Shown: positions 29,549-62,378, counted from the stretch's first letter. The stretch: 64,000 bases of DNA from Elusimicrobiota bacterium (GCA_021730935.1 JAKFYJ010000004.1:142412-206411), one strand, 5' to 3'. Program-made: numbers and translations. Notes: a model not told the origin generated them from the sequence alone.

Positions 29549-29573
29549 GGATGGCTCCTCTTGAAGCGTATTG

Positions 29574-53958: not shown

Positions 53959-55146
53959 ATGAAGAATTTTCCTCTCGGTTTTCAATCACAGGGACTTCAC
54001 TGCGGGATCGGCAAAAAGAAGACCAAGCCGGACCTGGCGATTTTTATCTCTTGTGAGCCTTGTCAGGCGGCGGGCGTGTTCACCCAAAATCAGGTGAAAG
54101 CGGCTCCTGTTGTTCTCTCACAGGAACGGCTCAAGAAGGGCCGGGCGGCGGCAGTCATCATCAATTCCGGGTGCGCAAATGCCTGCACCGGGGACCAGGG
54201 ACGCAAAGACGCGGTCAAGACGGCGGAACTCGTCGCGCAGAACATGCTCATTCATGCCAACGATGTGTTGGTGGCTTCCACCGGCGTGATCGGCGCGCAC
54301 TTGCCGATGGACAAGATGGCTTCGGGCGTGAAAGACCTTTGTTCCGCCATCTCTGAAGGTCAAAATGACCCGCTTCAGGCCGTCAAAGCCATGATGACCA
54401 CGGACACGGTTCCCAAATTTGAGTCGGTGAAAGTGCATTCGCCCAAAGGGGTTTATCGCATCTGGGGCTGCGTGAAGGGCGCAGGGATGATCCACCCCAA
54501 CATGGCGACCATGATTTCCGTCATTTTGACCGACGCGTTTTTGCCCGCCCCCGCTTTGAAGCGCATTTTGAAAAGTGCGGCGGATGAAAGTTTCAACTGC
54601 GCGAGCGTGGACGGAGACACTTCCACCAACGATTCTGTTTATCTTTTGGCCAACGGAGCTTCAGGGGCCAACCTGACAAGTCCGGCGGACCTGAAAAAAT
54701 TTGAAGAGCATCTCAAGCAAATTTCCCTCAGCCTCGTGCGCCGCATGATCGCCGACGGCGAAGGCGCCACCAAGACGGTGGAGATCACGGTTGAGGGCGG
54801 GAAAACTCCCTCGGACGCCAAAAAAATAGCCGAAACTGTCGCGACGTCGCCCCTCGTCAAGACCGCGTTCTTCGGAAACGACGCCAACTGGGGCCGGATC
54901 ATGGCCGCGATCGGCAGATCAGGCGTAAAAATCGCGCCGGAGAAAATCAGCATTGCTTTCGGAGATTTGCCCGTCGCCAAGAATGGCCAGGCCCTCGCAT
55001 TCTCAGAAAAGAGAGCGCTCGAAATTTTAAAGAAGAAAATTGTTCCTGTCGCCATAAACCTGGGCCAGGGCAAAGCCGTTTCCCGCGCCTTCACCTGCGA
55101 TTTTTCTCTGGACTATGTGAAAATAAACGCTGAATATCGAACATAA
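53959..55146 (+). CDS. argJ: Bifunctional glutamate N-acetyltransferase/amino-acid acetyltransferase
   Basis: ArgJ motifs (MMTTDTVPK; ATMISVILTDA, containing the autocleavage Thr) at about 395 aa. Confidence 0.9.
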   Translation: MKNFPLGFQSQGLHCGIGKKKTKPDLAIFISCEPCQAAGVFTQNQVKAAPVVLSQERLKKGRAAAVIINSGCANACTGDQGRKDAVKTAELVAQNMLIHANDVLVASTGVIGAHLPMDKMASGVKDLCSAISEGQNDPLQAVKAMMTTDTVPKFESVKVHSPKGVYRIWGCVKGAGMIHPNMATMISVILTDAFLPAPALKRILKSAADESFNCASVDGDTSTNDSVYLLANGASGANLTSPADLKKFEEHLKQISLSLVRRMIADGEGATKTVEITVEGGKTPSDAKKIAETVATSPLVKTAFFGNDANWGRIMAAIGRSGVKIAPEKISIAFGDLPVAKNGQALAFSEKRALEILKKKIVPVAINLGQGKAVSRAFTCDFSLDYVKINAEYRT

Positions 55147-55268: not shown

Positions 55269-56423
55269 ATGGAATCAGTAAGTAGATTTTTAAAGGCTCC
55301 GGAACAGAGCTTTTTCCTGTTCGGGCCCCGGGGAACGGGCAAGTCAACCTGGGCTCGCGCTCAGTTTAAAGGAGCCCTCCGGATCGATCTGCTGGAACCG
55401 GACCAATTTCGCGCTTACAGCGCCCGCCCCGAGCGGGTCCGGGAATTGCTTGAATCTCAAGCCCTCCCCGGATGGGTTATCATCGATGAAGTTCAAAAGG
55501 TTCCCGCGCTCTTGAGCGTCGTTCACGCGCTCATCGAGGAAAAACGCGGATGGCGTTTTGTCATGACGGGATCGAGCGCGCGAAAACTCAAGCGCGCAGG
55601 CGTGGATCTGCTCGCTGGCCGGGCCCTCATGAAAACGCTCCACCCTTTCATGGCGGCAGAGCTCGAAAAAGGGTTTAAACTGGAAGAAGCTTTGAAATCC
55701 GGGCTTCTCCCTTTGGTTTTGAACGCCGAGCATCCTGACGACATCCTCAAGGCCTATGCGGCGCTTTATTTGAAAGAGGAAGTGCAGATGGAGGGGCTTG
55801 TGAGAAATGTCGGGAACTTCTCGCGGTTTCTGGAGGCCATTAGTTTTTCTCACGGTTCTGTTCTGAACATCAGCAACGTTGCCAGGGACTGCGAAGTTCA
55901 GCGCAAGGTGGTTGAAGGGTATGTTGAGATTTTGGAAGACTTGCTTCTGTCGTTTCGGATTCCGGCTTTTTCAAAGCGGGCGAAACGAGCCATAGTGACG
56001 CACCCAAAATTTTATTATTTCGACGCCGGAGTTTTTCGGTCGCTGAGACCGCAGGGGCCCTTGGACCGGCCTCAGGAAACTGACGGACAATGCTTGGAAG
56101 GGCTTTTGGCTCAGCATTTGCGCGCCTGGGCGGCCTATCGCGGAGACAAATCAAAATTGTTTTTCTGGCGAACCCATTCTGGAAGTGAAGTTGATTTTGT
56201 AGTATATGGCGAAGACGGGTTCTGGGCCATTGAAGTTAAAAATACGGGCAAGGTAAAAGACGAGGATTTGAAGCCCTTGCGCGTTTTTTTGGAAGAATAT
56301 CCCGAAGCCCGAGCCATTTTTCTTTATCGCGGCAAAGAACGGCTTAAACGTAACGGGATTCTATGCATGCCTTGTGAGGATTTTTTGAGAGATCTTCATC
56401 CGGGGAAAACGATTTCGGCGTAA
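55269..56423 (+). CDS. AAA-family ATPase with DUF4143-like C-terminal domain
   Basis: Walker A (LFGPRGTGKST) and Walker B (VIIDEVQ). The architecture matches the widespread ATPase plus DUF4143 proteins. Confidence 0.75.
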   Translation: MESVSRFLKAPEQSFFLFGPRGTGKSTWARAQFKGALRIDLLEPDQFRAYSARPERVRELLESQALPGWVIIDEVQKVPALLSVVHALIEEKRGWRFVMTGSSARKLKRAGVDLLAGRALMKTLHPFMAAELEKGFKLEEALKSGLLPLVLNAEHPDDILKAYAALYLKEEVQMEGLVRNVGNFSRFLEAISFSHGSVLNISNVARDCEVQRKVVEGYVEILEDLLLSFRIPAFSKRAKRAIVTHPKFYYFDAGVFRSLRPQGPLDRPQETDGQCLEGLLAQHLRAWAAYRGDKSKLFFWRTHSGSEVDFVVYGEDGFWAIEVKNTGKVKDEDLKPLRVFLEEYPEARAIFLYRGKERLKRNGILCMPCEDFLRDLHPGKTISA

Positions 56424-56457: not shown

Positions 56458-58345
<1,888 letters not shown>

Positions 58346-58401
58346 TTATTTACAAATTTAGCCAATTAAAATACTATAGACTGAGTTATGATTAGGTCTA
58401 T

Positions 58402-58974
58402 TTGCCGATGAAAAACTTTAAATCAGGGATTCAAAAAGGGCTGGGCATTCTGCTAGTACTTTTTCTTGCAGCATTATGCTTTGTGGCATGGTGCTCATAT
58501 TGCCCAAAACTTCACTATCTCAATGCTTATCTTCCTAAAGACAATATTCAAATATCCTTAAGTGATGTTCAGATAAAAACACTAAATCAACTTATATCAA
58601 AGGGGATTGTTATTTCCGCAAGCGACCTATATAACGACACTATTGCTTTTTACAGTACACTTATCACCTGGCTCATTGGTATTTTAGGGATCAGCGGAAT
58701 CATTGGCTTTATATATGTGAGGAGTAAATCGCGTGAAGAAGCTGAGCACGAAGCTGAAAAAGCAGTTGATAACTATTTTGCCAAACAATCAGTGCATGAC
58801 ATGTTGGACAATAAGATTAAATCCGAGGTAGATAATCAACTTGAGGATGTGAAGAAAGATCTTGAAAGTTTGGAAGATATACAAGGAATAAAAGATAGCA
58901 TTCAAAAAATTGAAGAGAAAATTGAAGTTCTTGAAACAGATTCGGATAGGGTTATTCCTAAGGAGCCTGATTAA
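58402..58974 (+). CDS. Hypothetical 2-TM protein with C-terminal coiled coil (first gene of the low-GC operon)
   Basis: TM helices (GLGILLVLFLAALCFVAW; LITWLIGILGISGIIGFIYV) followed by an E/K-rich coiled coil. About 35-38% GC. Confidence 0.5.
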   Translation: MPMKNFKSGIQKGLGILLVLFLAALCFVAWCSYCPKLHYLNAYLPKDNIQISLSDVQIKTLNQLISKGIVISASDLYNDTIAFYSTLITWLIGILGISGIIGFIYVRSKSREEAEHEAEKAVDNYFAKQSVHDMLDNKIKSEVDNQLEDVKKDLESLEDIQGIKDSIQKIEEKIEVLETDSDRVIPKEPD

Positions 58975-59523
58975 ATGGCTGTAATTAAGAAGCAGTCCAC
59001 ACTCCTGCTTTCATATCCTGAAACGCTAGAAGAAATTACTCAGCAGAAGCACAGTAATATTTTTCAACAAGCCGAAAAATGGGGTATTAAAACGTATCCA
59101 TTTGATATTGAAAGTTTTATTGAGAGATGCGGAATAAGAATTGTTCGTGAAGAGATGGGCTATGATCTCTCAGGGTACATTGAGAAAAGGCATAAAAATT
59201 GGTTTATCGGATTAAATAAGTATCAATCTGTTCGACGACAAAGGTTTACGTTGGCGCATGAGTTTGTTCATTTTCTTTTTGATAAAAATGAGATTGAAAA
59301 TAGGCGTCATGACGACCATATTTTGTTGCGTAGCGAAGAAAATAATCCTAGGGAAAAACGTGCAAATGAATTTGCTGCTGAGTTGCTTATGCCAAAAACA
59401 ATTTTTAAAGAACAGGTGGATGGAGGGTTGCGCGATATTTCTGAGCTCGCACAGAAATTTGATGTTTCAATGGCCGCAGTTCGTTACAGAGCATATAAGT
59501 TAGGGTATATCAAAAATTACTAA
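58975..59523 (+). CDS. ImmA/IrrE-family zinc metallopeptidase (DUF955/COG2856-like)
   Basis: HEXXH (HEFVH) followed by EaNeFAAELLMP, about 180 aa. Start is 1 nt after the upstream stop. Confidence 0.75.
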   Translation: MAVIKKQSTLLLSYPETLEEITQQKHSNIFQQAEKWGIKTYPFDIESFIERCGIRIVREEMGYDLSGYIEKRHKNWFIGLNKYQSVRRQRFTLAHEFVHFLFDKNEIENRRHDDHILLRSEENNPREKRANEFAAELLMPKTIFKEQVDGGLRDISELAQKFDVSMAAVRYRAYKLGYIKNY

Positions 59524-60561
59524 ATGACAGAATATAATTATTTCCCAATTTTAAAAACAACAGATGCGGAGCTGCGGGCATATGCGGAACTCCCTGAAGG
59601 CGTCCAAGATAATGTCTTGCCCATTTTTGAGCTGACACAATCTCGAAGATCGAAAAATAATAAAGATGGCGATGTTTGGAAAAGAATCAATAATATACAG
59701 GCGAATATGGTCAACAGGCCATTTATTCTGGATTTAACCACTGAAGATTCACTTCAAAATAAGCACATTAAGGAAATGCTTGAAGATTCGTCAAAAGGGT
59801 ATAAGTTGTGGGTCGATCTTGTCAATAAAATACACGATAAGGGTATAAATATTATACCGATAATTCACTACAATCCTGAAGAAGTGGAAGATGTTAAAAT
59901 TCAAATAAATAATCTCAAAAAAAATTCAGACTATCTAGCTTTTCGAGTTGATCCGACTGACAATGTCATAACATACTTAGACCAGATAGAAAATGTATTT
60001 GATCTTTCAAAACTGATCCTTATTTTGGATGCAGGATATATTGCGAGTGACAATGAGAATCCATTTCTACCCGTACTAAAACTGTTGTCCAAAAAAGATT
60101 TAAAGGCTACTGTTTGTGTAGCTTCAAGCTTTCCAAAAAATCCGGCAAAATATGGTGATGTGCAAGGTAGTTTTTCCATTCCAGAGATTGGCATGATTGA
60201 GTCATTACGGAAAGATTATAAAATATTTCATGGTGATTTTGGATCAATTCATCCCGTGAGAGATCCAGCGAAGTGGGGTGGATGGGTTCCTCGAGTCGAT
60301 TTCCTTTCAAAGAGCACATTCTTCTATTATAGATATAGACGTGAGGAAGGGGGATATGTCAAAGCTGCTCGAAATGTGGTAGATGATGAACACTATGAGG
60401 CGATACCTAAATTTAGCGTTTGGGGAGACCAGGAAATCGAGGCTGCATCAAGTGGCCATCCGAATGGACTTAGCCCTTCACATTGGATATCAGTCAGAGT
60501 AAATTTATATATAACTCATCAATTTTTACGTCTTAAAAAGTACCCCAAAATGTCTTTGTAA
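59524..60561 (+). CDS. Hypothetical 345-aa protein, possibly 'beta-protein'/sce7725-like (recollection only)
   Basis: Start immediately after the peptidase stop (TAAATG). Low GC and no catalytic motif recognised by eye. The family assignment is from memory and untested. Confidence 0.45.
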   Translation: MTEYNYFPILKTTDAELRAYAELPEGVQDNVLPIFELTQSRRSKNNKDGDVWKRINNIQANMVNRPFILDLTTEDSLQNKHIKEMLEDSSKGYKLWVDLVNKIHDKGINIIPIIHYNPEEVEDVKIQINNLKKNSDYLAFRVDPTDNVITYLDQIENVFDLSKLILILDAGYIASDNENPFLPVLKLLSKKDLKATVCVASSFPKNPAKYGDVQGSFSIPEIGMIESLRKDYKIFHGDFGSIHPVRDPAKWGGWVPRVDFLSKSTFFYYRYRREEGGYVKAARNVVDDEHYEAIPKFSVWGDQEIEAASSGHPNGLSPSHWISVRVNLYITHQFLRLKKYPKMSL

Positions 60562-61183
60562 GATAATCCAAATCATCTTCTTGAACACGTTTTGATTTTT
60601 CTTTTAAGAAAATTTTGAACCTGTCTTTATATCTTCTAATTAGAGCATTTATGGCAAGTTTTCGAATGATAGCTAGGTTTTGACTTTTTTTCATTCTCCT
60701 TCGCAGCAGTGCGACAGTATCCGTTTTTTTTGTCTGGTATTTTGTAAGATCTTTTTTCCAAAGAAAAAAAAGTAAATTTTCTTTTGATAATCGTTGCTTC
60801 AAATAGGCTTGTTTTATAAAATCAAAATCCAATTTTTTATTATTTATGAAAGCATATCCGATAGATTTTGGTAATGCACGAATTAAATTATTTTTTTTGA
60901 ATTTAGTTGAAAATATAACATAGACTTGATCAAATGTTTTTGTATAGTCCTGTAGCTGTCTGGACATCCTTTTTAATGAATCGAGATCACTTTTAATTTC
61001 GAAAGCAATCATCTCCCCGTTGTTAGTAATTATTAAAACATCAGCCCAGCGTTTTCCAGAGAGAAATGGTATTTCAATGCCCACTATACGAGTTTGATAC
61101 TTCTTCATGATATAATCGAGTAACAGGCATTTTATTTTTTTTTCATTTAGCATAATTAATATTTCTAATGCCGAGTATAACAA
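60533..61183 (-). CDS. Hypothetical PD-(D/E)xK-like protein, possibly sce7726-like (recollection only)
   Basis: D...E-x-K arrangement (WADVLIITNNGEMIAFEIKSD). Basic C-terminus. Convergent with the preceding gene, with a 29-nt overlap. Low GC. Confidence 0.45.
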   Translation of the reverse strand: MLYSALEILIMLNEKKIKCLLLDYIMKKYQTRIVGIEIPFLSGKRWADVLIITNNGEMIAFEIKSDLDSLKRMSRQLQDYTKTFDQVYVIFSTKFKKNNLIRALPKSIGYAFINNKKLDFDFIKQAYLKQRLSKENLLFFLWKKDLTKYQTKKTDTVALLRRRMKKSQNLAIIRKLAINALIRRYKDRFKIFLKEKSKRVQEDDLDYLTKTFWGTF

Positions 61184-61398
61184 TATTAAACGACTTTTGA
61201 CAGATCCACGCTCAAGTCTGCTGGGATACGGGACGTACTTAACTAATTAACTAAATAAACTCTCAGAATCAGTAGAAAACTTTCCTACACACATTGACAT
61301 AATTCGCTCATGGATTTCGTTGGGCGGATTGCTATCCTAGGGTATGAGAAACCGCAATCTTGCGGGGCTCGAATCTAAATGATAGGATGGAATAAATT

Positions 61399-61704
61399 AT
61401 GAAAAAGCAAAAATCAGAATCATTCGTCACCAATTCAGTGTTTGTGAACGAAACCACCTCGATCCGAGCTGACATGCGCTCAATGGAGCAAAGATTGGCT
61501 CTGGCGATTATCAAGACCCAGTCGGACGTTGTCAAGGAATCCATGATCATAAAAATGACTTTGAAAGAAGAAATCGGAAATGTCCTGAACGCCATCGACA
61601 GCTTTACGCACAGGATTGAAACCTATGACCGCAAAACTCTTGTGCACGATGCCCGTCTGAACGATCACGAAGCGCGCATCACCCGCCTGGAACGGCCTGC
61701 CTGA
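61399..61704 (+). CDS. Small hypothetical coiled-coil protein
   Basis: 101 aa with helical heptad-like content. No family recognised. Confidence 0.35.
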   Translation: MKKQKSESFVTNSVFVNETTSIRADMRSMEQRLALAIIKTQSDVVKESMIIKMTLKEEIGNVLNAIDSFTHRIETYDRKTLVHDARLNDHEARITRLERPA

Positions 61705-61709
61705 ACGCT

Positions 61710-62126
61710 ATGCCCACAGAAACTTTCAAAGCTTCGCGCTGGACCAAAGGCAATTTGTTTTTTCCAACCCTGATCGAGGTGTCGGACTCGTCCGTCGTCC
61801 GCAAAAAGCCGGGGCTGATTTCACGCAATGAGATGAGCATCCACATCAAAAACATCGCCTCCGTCCGCATCCAGACAGGGCTCCTCTGGTCCGACATCCT
61901 GATCGAGTCCAGCGGCGGGACAGACGCCATCTCCAGCCACGGGCACAAAAAAGCAGACGCCATCCGCATCAAGGAAATCATTGAATCGTCCCAGACCCGC
62001 CACCTGGGGGCCGTTCCCAAACCCGCTCCCGTTGAGCCCACAAAGACTTGCCCCTATTGCGCCGAAACCATCAAGACCGCCGCCAAAGTCTGCCGCTTCT
62101 GCAACCACGAACTTCCGACGGAGTAA
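61710..62126 (+). CDS. Bacterial PH-domain (YdbS/YdbT-like) protein with C-terminal zinc ribbon
   Basis: N-terminus resembles bPH_2 (KGNLFFPTLIEVSDSSVVRKKPGLISRNEMSIHIKNIASVRIQTGLLWSDILIESSGG). The C-terminus has CPYC...CRFC. Confidence 0.45.
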   Translation: MPTETFKASRWTKGNLFFPTLIEVSDSSVVRKKPGLISRNEMSIHIKNIASVRIQTGLLWSDILIESSGGTDAISSHGHKKADAIRIKEIIESSQTRHLGAVPKPAPVEPTKTCPYCAETIKTAAKVCRFCNHELPTE

Positions 62127-62129
62127 AAT

Positions 62130-62378
62130 ATGAAAAAAACAAACTGTCATTTTTACATGCTGGTCATGCTTCTTTGTTTCTGTTGCGGCACTTCTTATGC
62201 TCATGCAGATGTCGGCATTTCCAAATCCACTCAAACTGTTATTGCATCTCCGTTCGAAAAGGAAAAAGATAGTCCGCGCATCACATGGGTTTCCAGGACG
62301 ATTAGGGTCGTTCGAGGTCTGTTTGGCGTGTTCGATTTGCCGAGTCCAAGAAAGAAGTCCGTTCCCTCCCAGGAATAA
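62130..62378 (+). CDS. Small secreted hypothetical protein
   Basis: 82 aa with a signal-peptide-like N-terminus. Weak support. Confidence 0.3.
   Translation: MKKTNCHFYMLVMLLCFCCGTSYAHADVGISKSTQTVIASPFEKEKDSPRITWVSRTIRVVRGLFGVFDLPSPRKKSVPSQE

Follow-up and report, generated by a model that had tools for sequence, protein, structure and literature searches.

What kind of system occupies the low-GC (guanine-cytosine) island directly downstream of upp in the genome of an Elusimicrobiota bacterium (GCA_021730935.1, JAKFYJ010000004.1:142412-206411; 64,000 nucleotides (nt), this whole stretch being hereafter the window)? An original prediction, made from the sequence alone, described four tightly packed genes encoding a membrane protein, an ImmA/IrrE-type peptidase, a 345-amino acid (aa) protein and a PD-(D/E)xK-like protein, and proposed a horizontally acquired conflict system whose architecture matches no described one. 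We refer to these genes as G1, M78, beta and cII, respectively. The last part of that proposal was not supported, as the layout of P4 gop-beta-cII and the pairing of M78 with beta in PD-lambda-2 both match it. The cassette is a peptidase-containing sister form of P4 gop-beta-cII, and it links gop-beta-cII to PD-lambda-2 of E. coli. Its components and overall kind are known, and what is new is the four-gene combination of G1, a stand-alone M78, beta and cII. Judging from its gene content, the island very probably holds a defence cassette related to these two systems, and the direct matches to defence-system models described below agree with the conflict-type function originally proposed.

We identified the beta product as a member of the Pfam family Beta_protein over its full length (PF14350, 1.6e-44; 153 bits, cut-off 27). 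It also matched the PADLOC model 'beta' (PDLC02985, 3.5e-50) and, more weakly than this P4-type model, the PD-Lambda-2_C models (4.5e-17, 1.5e-12, and 9.2e-9). A tblastn search of a phage collection recovered P4 beta (E = 1e-19; 27% identity across 96% of the query) as well as one Pasteurella phage. The 'beta protein' named in the original prediction is thus confirmed, as is the sce7726 assignment of the convergent gene, whereas sce7725 is not, since no NCBIfam model matched beta (E up to 0.1). Beta was confidently modelled as a TIM barrel (predicted local distance difference test, pLDDT, 96), in which the invariant polar residues are predicted to lie on or just after the strands, at the C-terminal strand ends. 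The earlier statement that the 345-aa protein has no recognisable catalytic signature therefore needs qualifying. The family is of modest size, with 2,296 clusters at 50% identity (E ≤ 1e-3), or 291 at E ≤ 1e-30, among 1.84 billion representatives.

The 182-aa M78 product contains Peptidase_M78 as its sole Pfam domain (PF06114, 1.2e-25, residues 50-173) and matched the PADLOC models capP (6.7e-31) and PD-Lambda-2_B (1.7e-6), the latter in its peptidase part only (model positions 245-372 of 402). Its zinc site (H95-E96-x-x-H99 with E127 as the third ligand) is intact, and across 80 homologues conservation reaches at least 95% for H95, E96, H99, and E127 as well as for R88 and R90, as expected for the HEXXH peptidase that had been called here. 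The nearest solved relatives are CapP (7t5t, 6e-7) and IrrE orthologues, and the relationship covers the peptidase domain only (residues 62-172 aligned to 64-175 of the solved relative; 182 aa vs. 291-301 aa in CapP and IrrE). The position of the switch cysteine is taken by H112 in the window protein and by F in the family consensus. Where present, M78 invariably lies between G1 and beta, translationally coupled. We also observed that the loop between HExxH and the third zinc ligand (59305-59331, residues ~111-119) corresponds in the alignment to CapP's 'cysteine switch loop'; D114, opposite one acidic residue of that loop, and R119 are at least 95% conserved, and this segment may be a different autoregulatory loop.

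The convergent gene encodes a cII protein, with matches to NCBIfam sce7726 (NF033832, 103.5 bits, cut-off 70) and PADLOC 'cll' (PDLC02989, 2.8e-28), and all of its homologues carry PF26915. The D...ExK arrangement noticed in the original prediction is conserved throughout the family (E37, D48, and E62-x-K64; 216-aa numbering) and sits in a restriction-endonuclease-like PD-(D/E)xK fold. Compared with MmcB-like and XisH-like PD-(D/E)xK nucleases (e.g., PDB 3dnx), cII adds a C-terminal helical domain of ~85 aa, and the window protein falls marginally under the MmcB-like Pfam cut-off (21.5 vs. 22 bits). Unlike those nucleases, cII was found in beta-linked cassettes only. With respect to sce7725/sce7726 pairs, cII is a bona fide sce7726 protein, but its partner is PF14350 beta and not NCBIfam sce7725. 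Searched against PDB sequences, the cII profile gave AcrIF14 as its sole match, which was non-significant (E = 0.027) and was disregarded.

The first gene, G1, encodes two hydrophobic segments by hydropathy (residues 8-37 and 80-108) and an acidic coiled coil, in line with the original description, and its transmembrane (TM) segments are kept across the family. From the N-terminus, the protein consists of a basic stretch, TM1, a loop of ~45 aa, TM2 with a conserved FYxTxITxL motif, and the acidic coiled-coil tail. Both termini, including the tail, are predicted to be cytoplasmic because the N-terminus and the stretch following TM2 are basic (positive-inside rule). G1 is fast-evolving (mean column identity 17%), with Y84 alone near-invariant. 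The family was present at ~82 other loci, in all of them directly upstream of the M78 gene, and no Pfam, PHROG, NCBIfam or PADLOC model matched it. Homology between G1 and P4 Gop was not detectable (BLASTP E = 0.12; family-versus-family hhalign probability 0.45%), and the two have only the architecture of two TM segments and a coiled coil in common. The upstream genes were accordingly rejected as Gop homologues, the BLASTP comparisons of M78 and G1 with Gop and the hhalign comparison all being negative. Likewise, the PADLOC model 'gop' (PDLC03001) matched neither G1 nor M78 (P4 Gop control, 4.8e-70). Given that this model does not match G1, the cassette is likely missed or partly called, which indicates a probable blind spot of detection tools.

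All four open reading frames (ORFs) are present in the window as predicted (Table 1). The G1 stop codon (TAA, 58972-58974) is immediately followed by the ATG of M78 at 58975, and the M78 stop codon (TAA, 59521-59523) by the ATG of beta at 59524. Both are TAAATG junctions with a spacer of 0 nt, so the claimed coupling and convergent 3' overlap stand. Two gene starts were revised. G1 had been placed at TTG 58402 (190 aa) and more likely begins at ATG 58408, on the basis of the family consensus MxK and an RBS (ribosome-binding site)-like AGG upstream; cII had been placed at TTG 61183 (216 aa) and more likely begins at ATG 61153, the same start as in the public annotation (P0125). The reported fall in GC from 58% to 38% was roughly right, with measured values of 56.6% in upp, 35% in the island, and 29% in cII. 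GC content was 0.350 over 58346-61398 vs. 0.532 in the remaining window, and the island is the lowest-GC 3-kb stretch of the 64 kb, 10.3 standard deviations (SD) under the other 3-kb windows. A promoter-like TTTACA-17-TACTAT upstream of G1 (58349-58377) is only a candidate because such matches in the region were not above shuffles, and a CTGTCA-18-TATACT with TG upstream of cII (61203-61174) was not above chance. Overall, the promoter and terminator scan gave counts no higher than shuffled sequences, and we did not take it as evidence.

Table 1. Features of the cassette and its borders, with positions counted from the first nucleotide of the window
Feature	Position	Strand	Remarks
Left insertion border, with operon upstream region	58346-58407	+	GC drop; collinearity with related loci L089/L090 ends at the upp stop codon TGA (58343-58345)
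G1, 2-TM/coiled-coil membrane protein, 188 aa	58408-58974	+	Hydropathy; possible effector
M78, stand-alone ImmA/IrrE/CapP-type zinc metallopeptidase, 182 aa	58975-59523	+	Pfam PF06114; possible proteolytic switch
beta, P4 beta homologue, orphan TIM barrel, 345 aa	59524-60561	+	Hub component common to all related systems
Convergent 3'-end overlap of beta and cII	60533-60561		29 nt; beta stop codon 60559-60561, cII stop codon 60533-60535 (minus strand)
cII, P4 cII/sce7726 family, 206 aa	60533-61153	-	N-terminal PD-(D/E)xK nuclease fold, C-terminal helical domain
cII upstream region and right end of the low-GC segment	61154-61398	-	GC climbs from ~0.31 to 0.42

We further compared the window with a related Elusimicrobia metagenome-assembled genome (MAG), whose upp protein falls in the same cluster of at least 90% identity as that of the window. 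The gene order of the relative is argJ-glyA-upp-[139 aa]-DoxX-GT4. Collinearity breaks exactly at the upp stop codon and restarts at ~62410, at the GT4 gene (77% identical), which indicates that the cassette and three small ORFs behind it stand where the relative has a different segment of 0.9 kb. The island was acquired horizontally, as the original prediction had argued partly from composition. The window contained no integrase ORF and only one tRNA, at 29573, and we found no significant direct or inverted repeats flanking the island and no phage structural, replication or integrase genes near the cassette.

Co-localisation of the genes elsewhere had been set beforehand as one test of the proposal, which it passed. 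Close metagenomic homologues of beta (49-63% identity) occurred within this four-gene cassette in three contexts unrelated to one another, and a scan with the beta alignment, covering one genome per species, yielded 80 further loci, on whose ORFs iterative hidden Markov model searches were run. The order G1-M78-beta with convergent cII was recovered for 73 of 90 beta ORFs, a ratio that is not an unbiased frequency because the retrieval patterns favoured window-like beta proteins; the same applies to the genomic and IMG/VR ratios in general, which are not population frequencies. Five further loci had the same four genes with cII co-directional (Campylobacterota, cII upstream; Prevotellaceae, cII downstream), four had no cII, and one had lost G1 to a contig end. 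The remaining seven, with neither G1 nor M78, comprised P4, Pasteurella phage Pmp11, two Photorhabdus, one Castellaniella, one locus cut at a contig end, and one truncated beta ORF. Among the 73 loci, most gaps measured -4 to +3 nt, and beta overlaps cII at the 3' ends (-29 nt in the closest relatives; -4 to -56 nt in nearly all convergent loci). No conserved fifth gene was detected at the cassette loci.

The hosts belong to ~ten phyla and include Alpha- and Gammaproteobacteria, Bdellovibrionota, Bacteroidota, Planctomycetota, Omnitrophota, Elusimicrobia, Melainabacteria, Campylobacterota, Clostridium, and Ignavibacteria. In a neighbour-joining tree, P4-type beta proteins formed one clade and all M78-linked beta proteins its sister clade. 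The cassette is also carried by viral contigs, with 18 of 42 IMG/VR loci having the M78 four-gene form and 23 the P4 type, most of the latter with a Gop-like 2-TM protein upstream. At five P4-type beta-cII loci from IMG/VR (L121, L123, L125, L126, L132), no ORF of at least 45 aa ends at the beta start, and these may represent a two-gene form or have a very small upstream gene. Plasmid carriage was limited to a single distant match, in Persicobacter. At ~70 other loci, the families that recurred most often as nearest neighbours were restriction-modification components (ResIII, N6_N4_Mtase, Eco57I, Methylase_S, SWI2_SNF2) and integrases or recombinases, and unrelated housekeeping genes also flank the cassette.

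The loci with altered layouts are informative for cII. In Helicobacter and Campylobacter (L044, L045, L058) the order is cII-G1-M78-beta, and in Prevotellaceae (L075, L083) it is G1-M78-beta-cII with a 3-nt gap. The linkage of cII thus outlasts rearrangement, which implies that it is functionally part of the unit. Six loci (L054, L064 [Rhizobium], L071, L084, L109, L122) keep G1-M78-beta with no detectable cII, and this suggests that cII is an accessory rather than a core component.

We next compared the cassette with described systems. The gop-beta-cII system (Ghisotti 1990, cited by Rousset et al. 2022) guards E. coli from lambda and P1; if beta is missing, Gop is toxic (PMC9122126). Killing is triggered by the phage accessory gene orf184 (bioRxiv 10.1101/2023.04.06.535777). 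The P4 record contains gop (133 aa), beta (355 aa), and a convergent cII (264 aa) labelled 'sce7726 family protein'. The window cassette resembles it in its homologous beta (PF14350) and cII (sce7726/PF26915), in the small 2-TM and coiled-coil gene upstream, and in the convergence of cII on the 3' end of beta, and both are accessory cargo of mobile or viral DNA. It differs by the M78 gene between the membrane gene and beta, giving four genes instead of three, and by a longer G1 (~190-240 aa with a ~45-aa inter-TM loop, whereas Gop has ~130 aa and a tight TM hairpin). Moreover, beta and cII overlap here, whereas in P4 they are separated by a 27-nt gap with an annotated terminator; cII is shorter (~206 vs. 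264 aa); the window-type beta lies in a separate clade; and the host range takes in ~ten phyla and is not confined to enterobacterial satellites and phages. A P4-type module was also observed in Pasteurella phage Pmp11 (L002, 2840-5872), consisting of a 131-aa 2-TM protein, beta, and convergent cII, all annotated as 'hypothetical'. P4 Gop and this Pmp11 counterpart are both 2-TM proteins with a coiled-coil tail, and the Pmp11 module lies directly downstream of a CI-like repressor gene of a temperate phage, a typical position of lysogen-expressed morons.

PD-lambda-2 is a three-gene abortive-infection system in which a HigB-like gene comes first, an Xre-M78 fusion second, and a beta-like gene third; the Xre-M78 protein is toxic alone and rescued by the upstream gene product, and the beta-like protein is required for defence (Vassallo et al. 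2022, PMC9519451). The two cassettes share an M78 domain encoded immediately upstream of a beta-family gene in one operon, as reflected in the PD-Lambda-2_B and PD-Lambda-2_C matches given above, and PD-lambda-2 is a multi-component, toxin-antitoxin-like system of the abortive-infection kind. PD-lambda-2B is a ~400-aa fusion of an Xre helix-turn-helix (HTH) and a peptidase, whereas the window M78 has 182 aa and no HTH. The first gene is HigB-like there and a membrane protein here; G1 gave no match to PADLOC PD-Lambda-2_A or to Pfam HigB/RelE. A cII component has not been described for PD-lambda-2, and the window beta is much nearer to the P4-type 'beta' model than to PD-Lambda-2_C.

The M78 catalytic domain, with HExxH and a downstream Glu, is also shared with ImmA/ImmR, IrrE/DdrO, and CapP/CapH, the last being a switch associated with immune operons. 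In IrrE and CapP, HTH and GAF domains build a groove that senses single-stranded DNA (ssDNA; PMC13228613). The window M78 has no C-terminal HTH or GAF, hence no ssDNA groove, and no switch cysteine. In contrast to those pairs, the window has no gene for an XRE or HTH substrate; as the original prediction noted, no XRE-type repressor was found among its ORFs. The substrate of M78 is likely a partner within the cassette and not a transcription factor. We found no description of an M78-beta-cII form in the literature, although subscription journals were largely outside the reach of this search and absence is not proof. The 'beta family protein' of PMC13640721 was rejected as a lead, the term there denoting unrelated 2TM-beta PanE effectors.

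The explanation that we favour, and hold to be reasonably probable, is a self-contained, acquired four-gene anti-phage cassette of the abortive-infection or toxin-antitoxin-like type. From the two validated systems, we infer that the M78-containing subfamily is active in defence. G1, M78, and beta would be made in fixed proportion from the coupled operon and work in concert. On the model of Gop, whose toxicity beta prevents, G1 would be a membrane-damaging effector with a cytoplasmic coiled-coil tail, restrained by the TIM barrel of beta, which might serve as infection sensor or ligand-binding hub. Upon infection, M78 would cleave a partner, most plausibly the coiled-coil tail of G1 or beta itself, a proposal that leans on ImmA, IrrE, and CapP, which cut near dimerisation helices. 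Cleavage would free the activity of G1, and the infected cell would stop growing or die ahead of phage release. With its intact catalytic residues, cII may act on DNA as a PD-(D/E)xK nuclease, either attacking phage DNA or making or recognising a DNA signal that triggers the switch. This particular casting, with G1 as effector, beta as controller or sensor, M78 as switch, and cII as nuclease, is drawn by analogy and is tentative, its chance of being right in full being rather low. The cassette supplies a concrete model of four components whose catalytic residues can be tested.

Several observations weigh against the favoured explanation. The defence role of the M78-containing subfamily is argued by homology only. 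The picture of G1 as a membrane toxin kept in check by beta is an analogy, since G1 is not detectably homologous to Gop, and beta gave no specific enzymatic assignment. M78 has neither the HTH and GAF domains behind the ssDNA-sensing groove of IrrE and CapP nor the switch cysteine. Defence and mobile genetic element genes beside the cassette are frequent but not dominant (~15-20% of nearest neighbours). Finally, the PD-lambda-2 component that proves toxic when overexpressed carries the M78 domain and is no membrane protein (PMC9519451), which favours a different assignment of roles. Under that assignment, M78 would be the toxic effector of the same defence cassette, cleaving an essential host or phage protein, with G1 as anchor, sensor or neutraliser and beta as regulator (PD-lambda-2 or COG2856-type logic). 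We consider this unlikely, although several points support it: in PD-lambda-2, beta is needed for defence only; M78 is the most conserved partner, with its catalytic site intact; the rapid evolution of G1 would be expected if it touches phage factors; and a toxin-antitoxin study in Brucella is reported to deal with a Zn-metalloprotease/Xre pair (PMC10538038). Against it, the closest relative in gene order, P4, has no peptidase and its small membrane protein is the toxic one, the characterised ImmA, IrrE, and CapP are specific one-partner switches and not broad toxins, and the upstream neutraliser of PD-lambda-2 resembles HigB and has no relationship to G1.

The remaining alternatives dispense with a general anti-phage benefit for the host or with defence altogether. 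It is improbable that the cassette mainly serves as an addiction, stabilisation (toxin-antitoxin) or superinfection-exclusion module of mobile elements. Gop and beta do act as a toxin-antitoxin pair, viral or proviral contigs carry the cassette, it also lies beside integrases or recombinases, and the Pmp11 module adjoins a CI repressor; yet the window cassette lies amid housekeeping genes with no integrase, tRNA or flanking repeats, which leaves no element in need of stabilisation, protection against phages is seen for both tested relatives, and four components including a nuclease and a peptidase would be over-elaborate for addiction. A remnant of prophage or integrative and conjugative element immunity, that is, an ImmA-like anti-repressor peptidase whose ImmR/XRE partner was lost or overlooked, appears very improbable. 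M78 peptidases are classically paired with XRE repressors, and one relative (L005) has an 87-aa HTH_31 gene ~1 kb upstream. However, no HTH ORF occurs in or beside the window cassette, and XRE-type HTH domains (HTH_3, HTH_31, HTH_26, HTH_19) were found in only ~4 of 150 small ORFs flanking ~78 four-gene loci, with an XRE partner at <5% of loci, so the explanation of an ImmA beside a cryptic repressor, raised in the original prediction itself, fails. The constant coupling of the peptidase between G1 and beta and the lack of nearby phage structural, replication or integrase genes speak against a remnant as well. Ordinary local variation, namely an AT-rich housekeeping operon with a TIM-barrel metabolic enzyme, has a negligible chance of being correct: the TIM barrel is the commonest enzyme fold and the neighbours glyA and upp are metabolic, but the GC content lies 10 SD under the remaining window, the segment is missing at the syntenic site of the related genome, the genes are spread patchily over phyla and viruses with unrelated flanks, and they match defence-system models directly. 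The synteny break and the family matches together refute it.

These results place the TIM barrel of beta as the hub common to gop-beta-cII and PD-lambda-2, both of them validated systems whose mechanism is unexplained. In our biased sample of reference genomes, the commonest partners of beta were a membrane protein, a minimal M78 peptidase, and a PD-(D/E)xK nuclease, and this partner set spans Proteobacteria, Bacteroidota, Planctomycetota, Elusimicrobia, Cyanobacteria-related lineages, and viral contigs. The composition of the cassette suggests a non-transcriptional immunity role for ImmA/IrrE-type peptidases. More speculatively, beta could be an enzyme or a sensor of small molecules or nucleic acids acting as an orphan TIM-barrel hub, the four-gene cassette could be the main cross-phylum form, and the minimal ImmA-like peptidase could cut the effector complex and thereby free a membrane toxin; taken as a whole, we think this proposition doubtful. 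If the peptidase does act directly on the effector complex, this would be a new use of M78 peptidases in immunity and would offer one unifying mechanism for gop-beta-cII and PD-lambda-2.

Several neighbouring genes were also recorded. Between the cassette and the GT4 gene, three small ORFs (61399-62378, plus strand) encode proteins of 101, 138, and 82 aa, of which the first is a coiled-coil protein and the second has bPH_2 and a UPF0547 zinc ribbon. All three were rejected as further components, having no homologues at any other cassette locus. Considering that GC climbs from 48% to 57% across them and that neither the related MAG nor the other cassette loci contain them, they probably either arrived separately or are specific to the lineage. 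Upstream, a gene for a 384-aa AAA_14 and DUF4143 ATPase with a weak NERD match (55269-56423, plus strand) lies between argJ (53959-55146; 67% identical to the ArgJ of the relative) and glyA. In related Elusimicrobia MAG loci (L089, L090, L091), argJ directly precedes glyA, which marks the ATPase gene as a second small insertion ~2 kb upstream of the cassette. In a metagenomic relative (L005/L006, 5591-9603), the HTH_31 gene mentioned above lies ~1 kb upstream of the peptidase gene and ~0.3 kb from G1, and the cassette adjoins a restriction-modification-like pair, a ResIII/SWI2_SNF2/YagJ helicase-nuclease and an N6_N4 methyltransferase, the whole forming a small defence island.

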